A stretch of DNA of 64,000 nucleotides from a virus (lineage: Duplodnaviria > Caudoviricetes), in IMG/VR virus record IMGVR_UViG_3300028907_000003, positions 21,000-84,999 of that record; one strand, 5' to 3'. Under the pieces are notes generated by a model. The model saw nothing but the letters and a program-made list of their open reading frames with translations. It was not told the origin of the DNA and ran no database searches. Position 1 is the first letter of the stretch. The number at the start of each line of letters is the position of its first letter. The position numbers were made by a program, and so were the translations under genes. Shown here piece by piece: positions 45,838 through 58,721 of the stretch.

Positions 45838-46800
45838 ATGAGAACATTAGATGATGTGGGGTTCTATACAATGACCGAGAAGCGGGTTGCTACGTCAACC
45901 TGCTATACTCCGGTGTATAGAGCGGAATTTATAATTACTGATTTGTGCAATTTTAAGTGTCCGTATTGTAGAGGAATCGACTGTGGGGGATATTTAAAAT
46001 ATCGGGACTTTGCAGAGCAGCTTGGTTATGTCGGGGTTGGTACTCGTGGCTTGAAGAATATTAGATTCTCAGGCGGGGAACCTACACTGCATCCGGACTT
46101 GGGAAGATTTGTTGAATTGGCTAAAAAGCATCACTGTGAGCATATAGCTATTTCAACTAATGGGTCAGCCCCTAGAGAAGCATACGATGCACTATTAGAA
46201 GCCGGTGTAAATGATTTCTCTATCAGTTTGGATGCATGTTGCTCCAGTTTCGGAGAGAAAATGTGTGGTGGGATCCCTGGAGCGTGGGAAAGAGTCATCG
46301 ACAATATCAAGTATCTGTCAAAGAAAACATATGTTACTCTAGGAATGGTATTTGATGACAGTACTATTGAAACCATGCCAGAAACCGTTCAATTCGGACA
46401 TGATCTTGGAGTGGCAGATATCAGAGTGATATCTTCGGCGCAGTCCGATCTTACATTGAGTGGATTAAAGTCAATTGATTGGAATCTCCTGAAAGATCAC
46501 CCGATTCTGAAATATCGAGTAATGAATACCGTAGAGGGCAGACATGTACGCGGGTTAACCAAGATGGACAGCGATAAATGCCCGCTTGTTATGGATGATG
46601 TGATGATATGCAATGGTAATCATTATGCGTGTCCAATTCATATGCGTGAGCATGGAGAACCCATTGGAAAAGTCGGTCCTGGTATGTGGAATGAACGGGA
46701 AATGTGGTGGTTAAAACACAATACGCAAAAGGATCCAATATGTAAGCATAACTGTATTGAATGCTGTGTGGACTTCAATAACCGTTGGGAGTTGTATTAA
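45838..46800 (+). CDS. Radical SAM enzyme with Cys-rich C-terminus
   Basis: CNFKCPYC, SGGEP, ISTNG, SISLD; C-terminal C..C..C..CIECC. Confidence 0.9.
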   Translation: MRTLDDVGFYTMTEKRVATSTCYTPVYRAEFIITDLCNFKCPYCRGIDCGGYLKYRDFAEQLGYVGVGTRGLKNIRFSGGEPTLHPDLGRFVELAKKHHCEHIAISTNGSAPREAYDALLEAGVNDFSISLDACCSSFGEKMCGGIPGAWERVIDNIKYLSKKTYVTLGMVFDDSTIETMPETVQFGHDLGVADIRVISSAQSDLTLSGLKSIDWNLLKDHPILKYRVMNTVEGRHVRGLTKMDSDKCPLVMDDVMICNGNHYACPIHMREHGEPIGKVGPGMWNEREMWWLKHNTQKDPICKHNCIECCVDFNNRWELY

Positions 46801-49707: not shown

Positions 49708-50700
49708 ATGTTAAAACTAAAAGATGTAGTGTATGAAATTACGCCAAGATGCAATAAGGGATGTATTGAATGTGGTTCAGCTGCAATTACTGGACTACCC
49801 CATCCAGATGTAGCACACATTGGAAAAATAGTGGATTCTATCTTAGCATATCCACCGGAAACTATCACTATAACAGGTGGAGAGCCAGGATCTTTGCCCA
49901 GTGGTGTATTAAATGCTGTAGTTCATGATCTAGCGCAAAAATGCAAAGTAAACATCGTTACAAATGGTGCTCTATTTGATCAAGAGGTAAGCCCGGATTT
50001 TAACGTAATCGGAGTTTCTATCAATAGAGTGGAAGATTCTGAAGAATTTAATCATGGGCAAGCTTTTGGTCGATCTCAGTTTTTTTCTGATAAACTTGTA
50101 ATGATTACAAATTTCGGGACACATAACGTATGGTGCTTTGATCAGCTGGCTGAGATTGCAGCTAAATTCCCAATGTGGCAGATTCAGCTTACCATGGGCG
50201 AATATATGTTACCAGCGACAGGTATTGAATATCTAATGAGTAAGATAAACGATCTTAAAATCAATTACGTACTTGCTGATAATTTGCAGCCTGAAGGCAG
50301 ATGCCTAGCTGGTATCAATATGTGTGGTATTACATATAATGGAAATGTTATTCCATGCTTATCAGAGAGGGCATGCTGTGATGGAACTGTTACCGTATAT
50401 GGTAATTTGTTCTCGGAATCACTAAAATCGATATGGGAAACTAAGTTTACTGATATTCGATTTGTTGATGAGGGTTGGTGCAGAAAGTGTAAAAGTTTCA
50501 TTGATTACCCACCGAAGAAAAAACTATCCGCTAGAGAAAAACTCGGCATGATATTACCCGAAGGACCAATTCGTGATTGGAGTCCAATGGAAATACAGTT
50601 GTACGGTGTAGCTGATACACAGATATATGCTTATGCTGTTTTTGATTCGAGGGATTATTCACATTCTACATATGGTACACAAACAATAATTACAAACTGA
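49708..50700 (+). CDS. Radical SAM/SPASM enzyme with YG-containing tail
   Basis: YEITPRCNKGCIECGS, TGGEP, VTNG, CLAG...GI...G.V.PCLS, GNL, CRKC. Confidence 0.88.
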   Translation: MLKLKDVVYEITPRCNKGCIECGSAAITGLPHPDVAHIGKIVDSILAYPPETITITGGEPGSLPSGVLNAVVHDLAQKCKVNIVTNGALFDQEVSPDFNVIGVSINRVEDSEEFNHGQAFGRSQFFSDKLVMITNFGTHNVWCFDQLAEIAAKFPMWQIQLTMGEYMLPATGIEYLMSKINDLKINYVLADNLQPEGRCLAGINMCGITYNGNVIPCLSERACCDGTVTVYGNLFSESLKSIWETKFTDIRFVDEGWCRKCKSFIDYPPKKKLSAREKLGMILPEGPIRDWSPMEIQLYGVADTQIYAYAVFDSRDYSHSTYGTQTIITN

Positions 50701-50703
50701 GGA

Positions 50704-53700
50704 GTGCTACGAATGCAAAAGAAAGTTTTAACAAGTGACGGTTACGTGTCTACGTTTGACAAGCAGAAGATCATCGATGAGATCCGCAAGAACTGTAAAT
50801 CGATGGGTGTTGAAGTCACCGAGAAACAGTTAACCAAGATTGCTACTAACACAGAAGAAAGTATTAAAGAAATGAAACCCAAACATCTTACCGGGAGTCT
50901 TATTCGTAGTGTATCTCTGATTGAGATGCTGGATCTAGGATTAGAAGATGTTTATAAGGCGTGTGCTAAAGTTGGTATGCCGATTGCTGATATGATGGCG
51001 ATATGGCAAGTAGATGGCGATAGTGTTCATGATAACGCCAATTTAGATGGCACTAATCAGGAGACTCAACACAAAAGAATCGCTGATCATATTTGTAAAG
51101 AAGCCGTACTACAAATGCTTCCTAGCGATATATCGAAACTCCATGTTGAAGGGAATCTACACTGTTTGTCTGGTGACATGCCAATTGTGTATAAAATACA
51201 AGATAAGATATACATATCTACCATCAAGGAATTAGTGGAAACTAGATATGAATCAGCTGTTAGTGTTCCGTCTATTGATACGCGCACGAAAAAGATATCG
51301 TGGAAACCTGTTACTCGATTTATAAAAAATCCATCTACCGATTTATACAAAGTCACGTTTGGTAAAGGTCGATATATCATTTGTACATCGGATCATCCAT
51401 TTTACAAAACATCGGGGCAACATATCCAACATTACACTCAACCACTTAGTGATTTACGAGTTGGTCATAGAATCGCCACATTAAATCATATACCAATTGA
51501 TGATGTACAAGATGAAACCTATCGTGGTAATTTAATTGGGTTTTTCTTGGGAGATGGTACATTACAGCATGGTTGTATATGTTTTCATTTGAAAAAAACC
51601 GAAAAAATCACATATCTTATAAATGTATTAAACCATTTAGATAAATCATATGATATGACAAATAACATAGATGGGACAACTACAATTTCATTTAAAGATG
51701 ACGAATTATGTGAAATTTGGAATAATTCAAAAAATATATCAAACTTCAACGAAGTTGATGCTACTGGCATTCTGTCAGGTTTAATTAATTCAGATGCATC
51801 CATCGTATTACATGGGATTAACAAGTTACCATATCTCGAATTCGGTAATACTAACGAAGATATCATTAATTTATATCATTGTTTAATGCTGATGCATGGT
51901 ATAAACGTAAGCTATCAACGATATGACAAAAAATCCGATACGCATAAAGATTTTTATCATTGTGTGTGTTCTGGTGAAGATGTTACCAACTTATTATGTA
52001 AACTAAGGTTACGTAAGCCGTTTGCGGATCGAGTTGCTCAACAATTCACGCATGGGACTAGAAAAACGCATACTTGGTCACAAATACCAATTAAATCTAT
52101 TGAATATTATGGTAATGAGGACACATATGATATTACAGTAGATGAAAATCATAATTTCTTGGCCGGTCATGGATTTATTCTATCAGGCAATTGTCATGAT
52201 ATGGAATACTTTACAAATCGCCAGTTTTGCTACAACAGTGACCTCCGTTTCATTTTATATTATGGACTACTCCCAGATGGATGTGGCAAAACATTACCAG
52301 TTGCAAGAGCAGCACAAACCGCAGAAGTTGCACTTCTACACGCTGCTAAATCACTTGGTTCAAGTCAATGTAATTGCGCTGGAGGTCAGGGGTACAATTC
52401 GTTTAATGTACTAATTTCTCCATATTTAGCTGGTAAGACCTACGCTGAAATAAAACAATTGGCGCAGATGTTTATATACGAAATGGGTCAAATGACATGC
52501 GCTCGTGGAGGACAAAGCCTGAGTTATGATACCCCAATCGTGATAAAGCGGGGTGATGACATCGATATTATATCAATCGGGGATTTCGTTGGTAAATATT
52601 TAAATCAGCCTGGATCATCCACTGTTGATGATATAATATTAACACCATCATTGAACCGGATAACTAATCAAGTAGAATGGAAACCCATAACGCATGTATA
52701 TAAGCATGTGCCAAAATCGAAATTAGTGGCAACATCTCTTCATGATGGTCGATCTGTTACGACAACGGAAGATCATTCATTATTTGATATTAATCAATTC
52801 GGTGATATATATGAAATTTCACCAAGTGATAATCCACACACAATCATCACGGTTAAACAGATTCCAATAACAGGATCAACTATCATTAATCACGATTTGG
52901 CTTTTTTAATTGGTTGTTGTATCGGTGATGGATCTCTTGCTGCTAATAATGGTATACCCGATACTTCTATGCGACTATGTATACACAATCGCGCTGTTAT
53001 GAATCGAATATCTGATATAGTATATAATCTGAATGGATCTGCTGGCGAGTGGCATGAAGATACTCAAAAAAAATGTTCAAGTATGTCGTTTTCTACGATT
53101 GGAATTCCATTAATTACTGAAATTGGTAAAGGAGCATCAAATAAAAGAATACCAGCTGCATTATTGTCATGTGATAATGATACACTTCTATCATTATTAG
53201 ATGGTTTGTTGTCAACTGATGGTAATATAAATCGTAGACGATACCAATATAGCACAACATCAAAAATTCTAATTAATCAAATTGAATACATATTACGTAG
53301 GATTGATTTAGATTACCATATAGATAAACGATTTACAAAAAGTAACTTTGTTAGAAATCACCCAGTATATCGCGTTACGTTAAGTACGATTAGTTCGCTT
53401 GGTATAAAAATTACAAATGATGAACGAACTATCGTAAATACTAATATAATTTCCCAACAACGACATGACTTTAGTATCATGAAATCCGAAATAACTTCTC
53501 GCGTACCCGGATTAAGTAAGTATAGCTACACTTGGCGAGCATCTTCACGAAGGCTAAAGTATCATCAATTAGAACAAGTATCACATTTAATACCGGATAC
53601 ATGGAACAAAATATGCAATATATTACCAATGGAAGTAAAGTCTATAAAAATAACTGAACCAGAAGAATTTGTATTCGACATAGGTGTACAAGACAATGAA

Positions 53701-55365
53701 AATTTTGTGCTCGCTAATGGTATTGTAGCGCATAATTCCGTTTTCAGTTCCATTCAATTGTACCCAGGCGTACCTCAAGTATGGTGGAACCGACCTGTTG
53801 TCTACAAGGGTCAAGTGTGGGATGGTAAACCAAGAACACCTAAGGGTAAAAAACAAACTACCTGTAAATGGAGTTTTGGAGGGAAAACTGGTGATGGTAG
53901 ATTATTCTTTAATCGCAGTGAAACAACTAAAGAAACCATACTAGAACCTGAAACAATTTCACGAAAAACATATGGACAATATGATCGGGAAGCTCGGCTT
54001 TTGTTTAAAGCATTCATGGAAATTTATACCGAAGGTGATATTCGTGGTAGGCCGTTCACATTCCCAAAGGCAGAAATCGTATTCTCTAAGGAGTTCATGG
54101 ATTCTCCTGATTTTGATAAACCTATTATCCGAAGGCTTACTGAATGGTCTGCTCCGAGTTACAAAGAACAATATCAATCTGCGATTAAATTAGCATTAAC
54201 TAATGGAACACCATATTTTGAATCGCAGTATCACGAAGAAAATCCATTAACTTCTATCAATTGTACCCAATGTTGCGCGTACAGCTTTGCATTAAGTGAA
54301 GAAGAAACTGTAGGATTCAACAACATGATGGATTTCGTAGATGGAGCGCATTTCGATTCACTTGGATCTATGCAAGTTGTGTCACTGAATTTACCAAGAG
54401 CCGCTTATGTAGCACTTGAAAGTGAAGAAGAAGATAAATTCATGACTGCTCTAAAGTACCTCAGAGAGCAAATCGATAATGCGGTGAGAGTATTTAAGAT
54501 TAAACGTGAATATTTATCTAAACAAGCATCACCATTTATAAGGCAACAGGTAGTGGATCCAAATGACCCAACTAAAAAATCCCCGGTATTCTGTGACTTG
54601 AGTAAACTGACATATGTAATCGGGATGGTTGGTCTAAATGAGTTTGTTCAAGCTCTAACTGGAATGCAGCTGCATGAATCTGAAGATGCTGTTGTCATGG
54701 GTGAGCGACTCATTGGATCACTTAACCTGTACTGTGGTAAGGTCGGGCATGAAAACGGAATGAGCATTGCATTGGCTCGAACTCCAGCTGAGACTACAGC
54801 CCAACGATTCGCCGTACAGGATTTAATCAAGTATCCAAAATATGCTAAAAAATATGTAAAAGGCAACCTAAAAGAAGCTATTAAAATGCTTCCTACTAGG
54901 AGAGATGTACCGATCCAGTACAGCAACGGTACACACTTGGCGGTAGATGCTCCGGTGACGCTAGATAAAAAGATCGAGATTGAAGGTCGATTCTTTGGTG
55001 TTCTCAAAGGCGGTAATATCTTCCATGTGTTCCTCGATGATGTAGTTCCGATGCTTAGAGCAAGCGAACTAGGAACCGGTGAGATACATCCGTCATACGT
55101 TGATGATGCTATGGAATTCGTGTTTAAGATCTTCCGTGAAACGCCGATCAACTATCTGGCGATAACCAAGGACTCGACGATATGTGATGATTGTAATTCG
55201 ATCACGCCCGGAGTAAATGAAAAATGTCCCAAATGCGGCTCAACAAATGTTGACTTTTTCAGTCGCATAACTGGATATTTGGAACCGATCAGTCAATGGA
55301 ATGCTGCAAAAAAACAAGAATTCTTTGATCGACATAGATATGGTGAAAAAGATGTCAGAGGATGA
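50704..55365 (+). CDS. nrdD: Anaerobic (class III) ribonucleotide reductase with ATP cone and two inteins
   Basis: ATP cone; H/CHDMEY; QCCAY; LNLPR; YSNGTH; Zn site CDDC..CPKC; glycyl loop SRITGYL. Confidence 0.96.
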   Translation: MLRMQKKVLTSDGYVSTFDKQKIIDEIRKNCKSMGVEVTEKQLTKIATNTEESIKEMKPKHLTGSLIRSVSLIEMLDLGLEDVYKACAKVGMPIADMMAIWQVDGDSVHDNANLDGTNQETQHKRIADHICKEAVLQMLPSDISKLHVEGNLHCLSGDMPIVYKIQDKIYISTIKELVETRYESAVSVPSIDTRTKKISWKPVTRFIKNPSTDLYKVTFGKGRYIICTSDHPFYKTSGQHIQHYTQPLSDLRVGHRIATLNHIPIDDVQDETYRGNLIGFFLGDGTLQHGCICFHLKKTEKITYLINVLNHLDKSYDMTNNIDGTTTISFKDDELCEIWNNSKNISNFNEVDATGILSGLINSDASIVLHGINKLPYLEFGNTNEDIINLYHCLMLMHGINVSYQRYDKKSDTHKDFYHCVCSGEDVTNLLCKLRLRKPFADRVAQQFTHGTRKTHTWSQIPIKSIEYYGNEDTYDITVDENHNFLAGHGFILSGNCHDMEYFTNRQFCYNSDLRFILYYGLLPDGCGKTLPVARAAQTAEVALLHAAKSLGSSQCNCAGGQGYNSFNVLISPYLAGKTYAEIKQLAQMFIYEMGQMTCARGGQSLSYDTPIVIKRGDDIDIISIGDFVGKYLNQPGSSTVDDIILTPSLNRITNQVEWKPITHVYKHVPKSKLVATSLHDGRSVTTTEDHSLFDINQFGDIYEISPSDNPHTIITVKQIPITGSTIINHDLAFLIGCCIGDGSLAANNGIPDTSMRLCIHNRAVMNRISDIVYNLNGSAGEWHEDTQKKCSSMSFSTIGIPLITEIGKGASNKRIPAALLSCDNDTLLSLLDGLLSTDGNINRRRYQYSTTSKILINQIEYILRRIDLDYHIDKRFTKSNFVRNHPVYRVTLSTISSLGIKITNDERTIVNTNIISQQRHDFSIMKSEITSRVPGLSKYSYTWRASSRRLKYHQLEQVSHLIPDTWNKICNILPMEVKSIKITEPEEFVFDIGVQDNENFVLANGIVAHNSVFSSIQLYPGVPQVWWNRPVVYKGQVWDGKPRTPKGKKQTTCKWSFGGKTGDGRLFFNRSETTKETILEPETISRKTYGQYDREARLLFKAFMEIYTEGDIRGRPFTFPKAEIVFSKEFMDSPDFDKPIIRRLTEWSAPSYKEQYQSAIKLALTNGTPYFESQYHEENPLTSINCTQCCAYSFALSEEETVGFNNMMDFVDGAHFDSLGSMQVVSLNLPRAAYVALESEEEDKFMTALKYLREQIDNAVRVFKIKREYLSKQASPFIRQQVVDPNDPTKKSPVFCDLSKLTYVIGMVGLNEFVQALTGMQLHESEDAVVMGERLIGSLNLYCGKVGHENGMSIALARTPAETTAQRFAVQDLIKYPKYAKKYVKGNLKEAIKMLPTRRDVPIQYSNGTHLAVDAPVTLDKKIEIEGRFFGVLKGGNIFHVFLDDVVPMLRASELGTGEIHPSYVDDAMEFVFKIFRETPINYLAITKDSTICDDCNSITPGVNEKCPKCGSTNVDFFSRITGYLEPISQWNAAKKQEFFDRHRYGEKDVRG
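51163..52191 (+). mobile_element. NrdD intein 1 (343 aa), penultimate Gly
   Basis: Starts CLSGD, ends ILSGN, Cys at +1; IGFFLGDG and SGLINSDA. Confidence 0.9.
52516..53736 (+). mobile_element. NrdD intein 2 (407 aa), Ser1
   Basis: RGGQ/SLSYDT...VAHN/SVFSS; IGCCIGDG and DGLLSTDG. Confidence 0.92.
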
Positions 55366-55477
55366 ACCGGTTCCCTTTTGGGAACCACTTAAAGCAACCA
55401 GAGAATGGATATTGGCTAAAACCAAAGGGTATAAAGATGGAAATGTGAAATCCGATTGGAGTGTTAAAAATGAGTGA
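55352..55477 (+). CDS. 41-aa peptide bridging nrdD and the next gene
   Basis: MSEDEPVPFWEPLK...; GGTGA RBS; overlaps both neighbours. Confidence 0.5.
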   Translation: MSEDEPVPFWEPLKATREWILAKTKGYKDGNVKSDWSVKNE

Positions 55478-56006
55478 TATTGTAAGAACTGTGTTAAAAC
55501 AGCGTGATGTACCAGCTGATACTTTCACTGATGTAGTGCCGATTGATATAGAACAAGGTATATATAGAAAATATGATATATATCAACTCGCGGCGGTATA
55601 TGAAGGAAATAGTAAAACTTCTGCAAAAGTTGCGGAAAACAAGATCTTTGGTGCTGAAGATTTTTACTTCATTAATGGAGATACAAACTTTGGTATAACC
55701 GGATTGAAGCAAACTGATAACATTAGATATGATCTACTTAATGCGATCAAAGAGTTTAAACCCGCTTATATCGTAACATCATCCAAGTATTTAAATATTC
55801 CTGGAATTACGATACTTAAATCGCCGTATGTAAATCGATATGAGCATTTCCTGCTACCAGAACGTGTTGGTGAATTTGTAGTTGCTGACCCACTGAAGGA
55901 TGAACTACTCAGCGATGGTAAACACTATATGCATGAGTGGGTAGCCATAGAATTGCACGACTTACATAAAGTAGCGTGGGTAAAGCCGCGAGCGAAACAT
56001 ATATAA
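55470..56006 (+). CDS. Truncated encapsulin/HK97-fold-like protein
   Basis: AEDFYFINGDTNFGITGL and C-terminal FVVAD...YMHEWVAIEL..KVAWV resemble the family 1 encapsulin P-domain. Confidence 0.6.
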   Translation: MSDIVRTVLKQRDVPADTFTDVVPIDIEQGIYRKYDIYQLAAVYEGNSKTSAKVAENKIFGAEDFYFINGDTNFGITGLKQTDNIRYDLLNAIKEFKPAYIVTSSKYLNIPGITILKSPYVNRYEHFLLPERVGEFVVADPLKDELLSDGKHYMHEWVAIELHDLHKVAWVKPRAKHI

Positions 56007-56033: not shown

Positions 56034-56291
56034 ATGAAGCATATATTCGCTGGATTGGTGATTATTGCACTTGTGGGAATAGCATTTGCTACTCCCCTTG
56101 ATGCAGTAAAAAGTGTAGGCGATGTTAATCGCGGTATAGTAGATGTAGTTAATCTGAATTCCAGTGTGTTCAAGGATCCATCCTTTGGAGATGATATTGG
56201 TAACAGTTCCGCATATAATGGAAGTACTACCGATGCTGCTCACGCTTGGGAAACCAGTATAAAGGAATGGATGAACTCTACGGAGTTCTAA
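56034..56291 (+). CDS. Small secreted protein
   Basis: Signal peptide MKHIFAGLVIIALVGIAFA. Confidence 0.7.
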   Translation: MKHIFAGLVIIALVGIAFATPLDAVKSVGDVNRGIVDVVNLNSSVFKDPSFGDDIGNSSAYNGSTTDAAHAWETSIKEWMNSTEF

Positions 56292-56735
56292 AACTTTTTA
56301 GGTGAAAACATGTCATTTGTAATCGATGATCGCATGGTAACAAAACTTGCAGCATGGATGATTTTCTACGCGGGGGTTTTGCTCCTGAAGCATTCCGATT
56401 TCATCGGTGGAATTCTAATGGGAATTGGAATTTCAGCGTTAATTAATTTAGGATGATGTAATGAACCAAGAAGAATTTCGAATTAGACGAGAGCTTCTTC
56501 TCGAAGAGACTCGTGAAGATTTAGCAAGAGTTAAGAAAATCGATAAAAAAATCGAAAAGCTACTGAAAAAGGCTATGCGTAAACATGGGTGGTAATATGA
56601 ATCATCCAACGCGAGCATTAAGACACTTAGACGCAGCATCCAATTGCATTCATGATTTAATAGCGCTGGTATGCGCTTTAATTTATTTTGCATGTATAAT
56701 GTTCTTTCTGTTGTTGTGTCTAATGTAGAATAAGC

Positions 56736-57160: not shown

Positions 57161-57949
57161 GTGGATGTCGTGTTTAATGCGAGGTTTGAGAAAATGGAAT
57201 TTGAAGTAAAGACAGATGCAATGGGCTACAAGGGTGTAGCCGGAGCCGTTGGAAAGTCATACGTAATGAACTCAGATGACATATATGAGTTTGTTATCAC
57301 CGGAGGAACCATAAGAAAGGATGTTGTTGTGCAGAATGATTTGATCCCCAAGAACCTACAGAATCGCCCAAAGGACCATGATTCTGGTAATGATAAGTAT
57401 CCCGCACTATCTCCAGCCGAGATTGAGGCTGTTGAGTCTATCGACCTTGGCAAGACAAAGGGTGGAGTACAGAAAAGCCCGTACTACGATGAGATTACCC
57501 TGTCTGCGGTTGAGCCTGAGTCCAACACATACTTCTTCTATGACCTGAAGTTCAGGATCTATGGTGGAGTATTCGGATTTGATATCCTGGATTTCGTGAG
57601 AAAGGTGACAGGTAAGGTCATTTCCGAGGGCGAGGGATTGTCTATTGGCGATGTCCTGCCTGTTGGAACAAAGTTTACCGCTAAGGTAACAACCAGTGGC
57701 CAGAGGCCACATATCATCATGAAGACTGTAGGCCCATCTGAGGGTGCTGCTGTATTCATGTCTCTGTCCGACGACGAGAAGGCATTGATTGGTGCTCTAA
57801 AGCCCTATGTAGGAAAGCCTATTGGTGAGATCAGGGCATATGTAGAGTCTGGATCATTCAGTAGTATCCTTGAGACAGGCGCAGCTGTCGCTGCTCTTGA
57901 AAGTCTTGAGGGAACTCCGTACTTTGAGGATGGTAAGCTCCATCTTTAA
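57161..57949 (+). CDS. Hypothetical protein with high GC3, possibly ssDNA-binding
   Basis: Own promoter; 53% GC on line 57601; precedes the AAA recombinase-like gene. Confidence 0.7.
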   Translation: MDVVFNARFEKMEFEVKTDAMGYKGVAGAVGKSYVMNSDDIYEFVITGGTIRKDVVVQNDLIPKNLQNRPKDHDSGNDKYPALSPAEIEAVESIDLGKTKGGVQKSPYYDEITLSAVEPESNTYFFYDLKFRIYGGVFGFDILDFVRKVTGKVISEGEGLSIGDVLPVGTKFTAKVTTSGQRPHIIMKTVGPSEGAAVFMSLSDDEKALIGALKPYVGKPIGEIRAYVESGSFSSILETGAAVAALESLEGTPYFEDGKLHL

Positions 57950-57971
57950 ACTCATTTTTGAAGGATGAATT

Positions 57972-58721
57972 ATGGCAGAAGTTGTAAGAATGCCCTGTAG
58001 ATGGGGTATATGTGGTGAGCCAAAAGCTGGAAAATCGCATTGGGGAGCCAGTACGGTTAAAAAGTTTGATGGCGTGGTAATGGATTTTGCAGGAATTACT
58101 CAAACCAAGCCAGAACAGCGAGCTAAAGCACAATATTGGGTTAGTGATGCTCAGTATGGTGATGCTTATTACTCCTGTCAGTCTGTTGGATTGGATCTCA
58201 CTAAACAGTACCGATATATCAGATCCTGGAAGGAGTTCTTGGATGCAGTTGAGTATCTGAAGAAATATCCAACAACGAAAGAGAATAAGCGTATTTGGAT
58301 GATCATCGATGATACCTTCATGTGGAGGTTCCATTGTGCAATTTATGTCCAGGAGCAAGCGGGACATGCCGCTATTGCACAGGATGATTGGATCCAGGCC
58401 GGTACTATCATGAATGGTATTGCTAGGTTCTTGGAGTCCAAGTTCAATCTGATGTTCATCAATCAGATGAAGGATGAGTGGGTTGGAGGAGCATCAACCG
58501 GTAAGTTTACACCAGCTTGGTATCCAACTAATCAGCCATACGCATTTGATCTGCTGACACAATTAACCGTGGATAAAACCGTACAGCCCTACGTACAGCA
58601 TATGGAAGTCATAGCCAACAGATGGAATTGGTCTTGTACTGATGCGTTTATATCAGATATCATTAACCCGAATCCCGAATTGGTTATGAATCTATGTAAA
58701 GTTCCAGTTGAGCTTAGATAA
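57972..58721 (+). CDS. AAA_24/Sak4-like P-loop ATPase
   Basis: GEPKAGKS, MIIDDT, LMFINQMK. Confidence 0.75.
   Translation: MAEVVRMPCRWGICGEPKAGKSHWGASTVKKFDGVVMDFAGITQTKPEQRAKAQYWVSDAQYGDAYYSCQSVGLDLTKQYRYIRSWKEFLDAVEYLKKYPTTKENKRIWMIIDDTFMWRFHCAIYVQEQAGHAAIAQDDWIQAGTIMNGIARFLESKFNLMFINQMKDEWVGGASTGKFTPAWYPTNQPYAFDLLTQLTVDKTVQPYVQHMEVIANRWNWSCTDAFISDIINPNPELVMNLCKVPVELR

Follow-up and report, generated by a model that had tools for sequence, protein, structure and literature searches.

A trimmed, capsid-derived HK97-fold protein family encoded outside the head module of wastewater tailed viruses

Tailed viruses and herpesviruses build their capsids from the HK97 fold, which also underlies encapsulins. 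In phage T4, gp24 is a full-length HK97 protein with N-arm and E-loop that occupies pentamers. The capsid-protein homologue Ccm of SaPIbov5 (355 amino acids, aa) is also a full-length HK97 protein with N-arm and E-loop in pentamers; it is encoded by a satellite, redirects the capsid assembly of another element and forms no shells alone (PMC8569155). Truncated HK97 proteins are known as the family 4 'A-domain' encapsulins, encoded downstream of enzymes (DUF1884, PDB 2PK8; PMC8346489). The question addressed here, with a gene of a wastewater tailed virus, is to what extent the fold tolerates shrinkage and which roles such reduced forms play. The DNA analysed (64,000 nucleotides, nt; hereafter the window) comprises G000:C1:21000-84999 of an 85-kb IMG/VR virus record with a CheckV completeness of 80%. 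At 55470..56006 on its plus strand (ATG at 55470, stop ending at 56006) lies the gene of a 178-aa protein, here called mini-HK97 or the mini, and the virus is one of a clade carrying this gene family. Within this clade of wastewater tailed viruses, the minis make up a conserved family of accessory genes that derive from a capsid gene and encode a miniaturised HK97 fold. New here is the sequence homology of the family to the lineage's own major capsid protein; in the literature searched, no description of such a trimmed capsid-derived form was found.

Neither the mini protein (P0001) nor a 41-aa peptide encoded just upstream of it had a sequence match in Pfam, PHROG or PDB, and a protein atlas search returned capsid-like leads for the mini with a low score (0.79). 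An AlphaFold2 model built from a 22-sequence family alignment (A2) had a predicted local distance difference test score (pLDDT) of 94.2 and a predicted template-modelling score (pTM) of 0.88. In a Foldseek search with this model, encapsulins ranked first (E ~1e-8, query template-modelling score, TMq, 0.7-0.77), followed by HK97 capsids, and a BFVD structure search led to HK97-type major capsid proteins. VIA-align superposed 173 of the 178 residues on an encapsulin (Z 16.2, root-mean-square deviation 2.4 Å) and gave Z 14-15 with HK97 gp5, actinophage capsids, a gene transfer agent and SaPI capsids. Across encapsulins and HK97-type capsids, structural alignments reached Z 14-16 over 170-176 of the 178 residues; because the superposition is near-complete, nearly every residue of the mini belongs to the HK97 core. 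The predicted layout consists of a stub E-loop hairpin (residues 20-36), the spine helix (49-69), the G-loop (70-78), a reduced A-domain (79-130) and a P-domain hairpin (134-162). As modelled, the mini is a real, minimal, compact and well-folded HK97/encapsulin-like protein of unusually small size. An earlier note on this DNA, made from the letters alone, had aligned the mini by eye with family 1 encapsulin; the same regions, the spine helix with the G-loop and the C-terminal strand, were picked when the A2 profile was run on the encapsulin chain 8dn9 with HMMER, though only at E 0.75. The likeness to encapsulins is thus not significant by sequence alone, and it is the predicted structure that makes the case; the HK97-like fold that the note anticipated is borne out by the top Foldseek matches. 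A four-copy homo-oligomer prediction scored 0.00 in two runs that had no controls, and is not used as evidence either way.

The family 1 encapsulins (PF04454; e.g. 3DKT, 7S21, 9FY6) were the best structural matches to the mini (Z 14-16, ~172 residues). Spine helix, G-loop and C-terminal strand follow a common motif pattern in the two, and the parental capsid protein, too, resembles encapsulins and has their size. In contrast, there was no significant sequence match between the mini and family 1 (best E 0.75 against PDB), PF04454 (Linocin_M18) did not match P0001 at E <= 10, and a single one of 22 family members matched it, at E 0.029. The mini furthermore has a short E-loop and a reduced A-domain, no N-terminal helix and no conserved cargo gene, and it is viral rather than cellular. 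By E-value it is closer to the viral capsid family than to family 1 by many orders of magnitude. Membership in family 1 was therefore rejected for want of a PF04454 match, the N-helix and conserved cargo. Structural alignments of the mini start at encapsulin residue 29-32, so that the N-terminal helix, which helps form the encapsulin cargo site, has no counterpart in the model, and an encapsulin-style cargo site is not supported. No conserved operon with a cargo enzyme and a targeting peptide was found either, as the neighbouring genes differ in G000, G001, G003 and L006.

With the family 4 encapsulins the mini has in common a drastically shortened HK97 fold and a gene just downstream of an enzyme gene, although in the case of the mini the enzyme neighbour is not conserved. 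What is retained is opposite: family 4 keeps only the A-domain (~100 aa), whereas in the mini it is the A-domain that is trimmed, and the P-domain, spine helix and G-loop are retained. Neither the mini protein nor its family matched DUF1884 in Pfam, and the assignment to family 4 was rejected on both grounds (PMC8346489). The mini family can be described as a stable form of ~165-180 residues consisting of the P-domain, spine helix, G-loop, a stub E-loop and half an A-domain, the reverse of the reduction seen in family 4.

The head module of the virus is encoded on the minus strand at G000:C1:1-10.5 kb, outside the window, in the order terminase-like gene, Mu-type portal, MuF-like gene, and open reading frames (ORFs) of 452, 225 and 304 aa. 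The mini gene, at 76.5 kb, lies outside this structural module with its terminase, portal, MuF and capsid genes, as the earlier note had supposed. We assign the 304-aa ORF (G000:C1:2915-3832, minus strand, after terminase, portal and MuF) as the major capsid protein because of its fold and position; its gene is ~73 kb upstream of the mini gene, on the opposite strand. The model of this ORF was of low confidence (pLDDT 58), with a topology that matches encapsulins and HK97, and the protein had a weak Linocin_M18 match. Capsid homologues of 299-316 aa were present in the IMG/VR records L015-L026. The 452-aa head-module ORF was considered as a homologue of the mini and rejected.

Profile comparison with hhalign matched A2 to the virus's own 304-aa ORF (97.4%, E 9.6e-12) and, more strongly, to an alignment of the capsid family (A3; 99.8%, E 8e-29), over 190 columns spanning residues 26-304. 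HMMER searches with A2 recovered the 304-aa ORF from the genome of the virus itself (E 2.4e-8 and 1.4e-5) and a capsid homologue of 309-316 aa in 10/10 related IMG/VR records (E 1e-7 to 1e-14). Since the homology to the lineage's capsid protein extends over the full length, the mini family represents a duplicated and trimmed capsid gene. Judged from these alignments, the minis are shown to be a trimmed paralogue of the lineage's own encapsulin-sized capsid protein. Sequence thus ties the mini to its own lineage's capsid gene, which makes it a clear example of such a gene being taken into an accessory role other than that of a capsid.

Alignments of the two proteins locate what was lost. The mini starts at residue 29-30 of the capsid protein and lacks ~28 N-terminal aa (the N-arm helix), ~19 aa at the tip of the E-loop, ~9 aa before the spine helix, ~60 aa in the A-domain and ~6 aa in the loop of the P-hairpin. 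The earlier note had described the protein as lacking its E-loop and part of the A-domain. The second part holds, with ~60 aa lost from the A-domain, but the E-loop is reduced to a stub (20-36), ~19 aa shorter than in the own capsid protein, and is not absent; the missing N-terminal helix (~28 aa) is to be added to the list. Mini and capsid protein share the HK97 fold and the invariant R, ED, G..G, AEF and EW..H positions: R35, E121-D122, G128, G136, E258, E285 and H293 of the capsid family align with R6, E63-D64, G70, G78, E135, E156 and H163 of the mini. A joint tree (quick search, unrooted, 37 rows) separated minis and capsid proteins by a single branch with a Shimodaira-Hasegawa-like approximate likelihood-ratio test (SH-aLRT) support of 99. 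The mini branches were far longer than the capsid branches, and the mini of G003 sat on a very long branch. Across relatives, identity fell from 98 over 89 and 50 to 39% for the capsid protein and from 97 over 71 and 42 to 38% for the mini. In spite of the paralogy, the mini was rejected as a capsid protein itself on the grounds of architecture, location and dispensability: unlike the lineage's capsid protein, it is encoded outside the head module, changes faster in evolution and can be dispensed with in a relative.

An exhaustive HMMER search over 1.84 billion representatives returned 24 family matches at E <= 1e-3, 16 of them at E <= 1e-10; two of the 24 were long repeat-rich proteins and were discarded as spurious. 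The remaining ~22 metagenomic clusters comprised relatives of 164-230 aa, together with a fragment of 47 aa and a form of 290 aa whose tail is Cys-rich. The motif TIRxDLLNAIKEFxPxxIITSS was strongly conserved, and the 22 diverged ORFs were intact, without stops. R6, E63, E135 and E156 were invariant in the family, as were G70, G78 and H163 among closer members. With relatives all of 164-230 aa, the gene is not a case of simple decay. On two Logan contigs (P0020 and P0045), 290-aa minis have a C-terminal extension with a CxxxCxxC (radical S-adenosylmethionine (SAM)-like) motif, which may stem from a fusion or from read-through to the following gene. Neither the gene nor the protein had a match among the INPHARED phages. 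Searches of viral and genome contig collections with A1 gave no related locus, P0038 and P0048 as queries gave none either, and a metagenome scan for related loci added three short contigs only.

Mini genes sit among replication and nucleotide-metabolism genes, at variable positions. The arrangement of the window was found again in a 98% identical contig (L004), with nrdD, the gene of the anaerobic ribonucleotide reductase, upstream of the mini. In L006, the mini, itself 42% identical, follows 12 nt after an ATPase-like gene that is 81% identical to window ORF 57972-58721. G001 (77.9 kb) encodes two tandem minis (213 and 226 aa) after a ComF-like phosphoribosyltransferase (PRTase), surrounded by NUDIX, phosphoesterase, HAD, PD-(D/E)XK and dCMP deaminase genes; no nrdD was present in this 77.9-kb record. 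In G003 (124.6 kb, 88% complete), a mini of 220 aa that has diverged (hhalign 96.9%) lies together with a 126-aa derivative between metallophosphatase-like and HD-domain genes, 5 kb from nrdD and on the opposite strand. Further tandem pairs were suggested by the lengths of the contigs of cluster members. The neighbours of the minis in L007/G001, L006 and G003 thus differ from those in the window, and nrdD is the upstream neighbour only in the window virus and near-identical relatives. In G002 (90% complete), whose DNA flanking the site is 95% identical to that of G003, the mini pair has been cleanly removed by a 1,036-bp deletion that leaves ~25 codons, while the neighbouring enzyme genes are kept. 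From the variable position, the tandem pairs, the fast evolution and this clean deletion we conclude that the mini is an accessory gene.

Some further features of these loci were observed. The sequence upstream of the deletion breakpoint was unrelated between L048 (G002) and L037 (G003). The 126-aa ORF of G003 (L037:1492-1869, minus strand), beside the 220-aa mini, retains only the N-terminal IVRRLLPRKELG and the C-terminal YEWINIVIHKPEKFIKV motifs and resembles a derivative reduced still further or a twin in decay. Over window positions 54079-56006, divergence from L004 was mosaic. In the nrdD tail 90/429 codons differ, 70 of them synonymously; near-identity prevails from the last part of nrdD through the intergenic stretch into the mini gene, where the 8/178 codons that differ are clustered at codons 36-44. 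This mosaic divergence suggests recent recombination.

As to function, we consider it plausible, though short of probable, that the mini binds the capsid protein of its lineage without propagating a shell, and so acts as a modulator or poison of assembly. In the predicted protein, P-domain, spine helix and G-loop remain as the core through which capsid subunits touch each other, and the elements that lock subunits into closed capsomers and join capsomers have been lost. With the core kept and the locking elements lost, the mini would most likely bind the full-length capsid protein of its own lineage and be unable to extend the shell. Assembly might thereby be modulated or poisoned, perhaps to counter related viruses in a co-infection, perhaps to time the virus's own assembly, and the position beside nrdD would be incidental. 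Ccm of SaPIbov5 may serve as a functional analogue and precedent (PMC8569155). Like Ccm and gp24, the mini is an extra capsid-protein homologue besides the real capsid gene; unlike them it is trimmed, and unlike Ccm it is encoded by the virus itself and not by a satellite. Ccm and gp24 both act through capsid assembly. The dominant-negative decoy proposed in the earlier note comes close to such a role, with the likely target being the lineage's capsid protein, the source of the gene, rather than a host encapsulin. Should the mini indeed bind the capsid protein, HK97 assembly would have a naturally occurring minimal inhibitor or modulator, one that would also be of use in engineering capsids and encapsulins.

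Several points weigh against a modulator or poison. The residues shared with the capsid family may belong to the fold core rather than to an interface. So many contact elements have been lost that the mini could equally no longer touch the capsid protein. A self-made poison would also have to spare the virus's own capsid, and no mechanism for that is visible. To our knowledge, all capsid-homologue modulators (Ccm, T4 gp24) are full-length, and we know of no precedent for such trimming. The variable position, duplication, fast divergence and presence or absence fit a gene involved in conflict, and fit a decoy of host immunity equally well.

Such a decoy, which we hold to be unlikely, would mimic the part of the capsid sensed by a host defence, be made before the late genes, and occupy or blunt the sensor. 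The bacterial defence systems CapRel and Lit sense HK97-type capsid proteins. Derivation of the mini from a capsid protein and its place among replication and nucleotide-metabolism genes would suit this role, as would the usual signature of an arms race, with a gene that is fast-evolving, tandem-duplicated and present or absent between near-identical viruses. On the other hand, capsid-sensing defence systems are not known from the presumed host, a faithful mimic should set the sensor off instead of blocking it, and we know of no anti-defence protein that is a capsid mimic.

We give a similarly small chance to the mini being a dispensable component of the virion, placed at special positions of the head (vertex, portal-proximal or cementing) in the manner of T4 gp24. 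The paralogy with the capsid protein and the similar identity ladders of the two proteins, which are compatible with co-adaptation, speak for it, and T4 soc, too, lies away from the head genes. The pentamers of SaPIbov5 Ccm are a further parallel (PMC8569155). However, a distance of ~73 kb separates the mini gene from the head module, the two lie on different strands, the position of the mini gene varies, and it is deleted in G002, a record estimated to be 90% complete. Moreover, the mini is devoid of the N-arm, E-loop tip and A-domain tip that pentamer subunits use.

The main idea of the earlier note was an enzyme cage, a new minimal shell or scaffold around NrdD or further enzymes of nucleotide metabolism, for which the 41-aa peptide would be the tag. 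We regard this as improbable. It would agree with the 4/4 known contexts lying in nucleotide-metabolism neighbourhoods (nrdD, dCMP deaminase, NUDIX, HAD, PRTase, HD, metallophosphatase), with the overlap of three reading frames at the locus, and with the family 4 encapsulins as truncated HK97 proteins downstream of enzymes (PMC8346489). Yet no single enzyme neighbour is conserved: adjacency to nrdD is absent in G001, G003 and L006, which leaves the functional coupling to NrdD without support. In G002 the mini pair was deleted while the neighbouring enzyme genes stayed, and the encapsulin N-helix has no counterpart in the mini. The 41-aa ORF had no homologue in five related virus records and belonged to no protein family, and the slot upstream of the relatives' minis held an unrelated ORF or only 12 nt, which argues against the peptide as a cargo tag. 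There is little chance that the mini would be the smallest self-assembling HK97 building block, a virus-encoded cage organising or shielding nucleotide-metabolism enzymes such as the oxygen-sensitive NrdD; if true, it would be a viral counterpart of encapsulins that arose directly from a capsid gene. That the mini is a functionless remnant of a duplicated capsid gene, as its length below that of the parent gene, its loss in G002 and the G003 derivative with its end motifs might suggest, is scarcely credible given 22 diverged intact ORFs of similar length with a strongly conserved motif, a compact model of very high confidence and the placement of the minis on one side of a single well-supported branch.

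At the locus itself, nrdD (50704..55365, plus strand; ATP-cone and two inteins) is followed by the 41-codon ORF (55352..55477, plus strand) and the 178-codon mini ORF. The 41-aa ORF, which is putatively coding and has GGTGA before its ATG, bridges the two genes, with overlaps of 14 nt at the nrdD stop and 8 nt at the mini ATG, so that the 'overlap link' of the earlier note is literally correct. The mini gene is preceded by GGAG at 55458-61, 8 nt upstream of the ATG, and an alternative GTG start at 55461 would give 181 aa. An in-frame 9-nt insertion behind 55431 in one wastewater relative, inside the 41-aa ORF, is a weak hint that this ORF may be coding; its single substitution relative to L004 makes dN/dS uninformative. 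Four nt after the nrdD stop, also inside the 41-aa ORF, lies a hairpin on the plus strand with a perfect 7-bp stem (GGTTCCC-TTTT-GGGAACC, 55369..55386). It was kept in the minimum free energy (MFE) and centroid folds, and the 121-nt region overall was not unusually stable (z -0.66). A TATA-like word (GGGTATAAA, 55427..55435, plus strand), 35 nt before the mini ATG, is a candidate archaeal-type promoter only; it was not enriched in the window, with 3 matches against 1.8 expected. Scans for sigma-70 promoters and terminators around the mini gene gave background levels. In two activated-sludge studies, contigs from RNA libraries spanned the end of nrdD and the mini gene, which is compatible with co-transcription of the two genes but is no proof of transcription, and the depth of such contigs cannot rank genes.

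One of the nrdD inteins (window 50704-55365) has a LAGLIDADG domain, and the RNA ligase of G001 likewise bears an intein. Radical SAM genes lie at 45838-46800 and 49708-50700, where an NrdG-type activase would be expected; one of the two, with a SPASM domain, is directly upstream of nrdD. Downstream of the mini gene there is an 85-aa ORF (56034-56291) with a signal- or transmembrane-like N-terminus, followed by a membrane-like ORF of 48 aa (56310-56456) with 11 non-synonymous and 4 synonymous differences from L004. The region 57161-58721 encodes a 262-aa ORF of no known family and a 249-aa ATPase-like ORF. The first of these (57161-57949) was considered as a second copy of the mini and rejected, being unrelated to the mini protein. 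In four runs, the ORFs of 57161-58721 were found on RNA-library contigs at ~10x the depth of the nrdD/mini contigs, and in two of these runs a contig carried 269 extra letters between 57959 and 57968.

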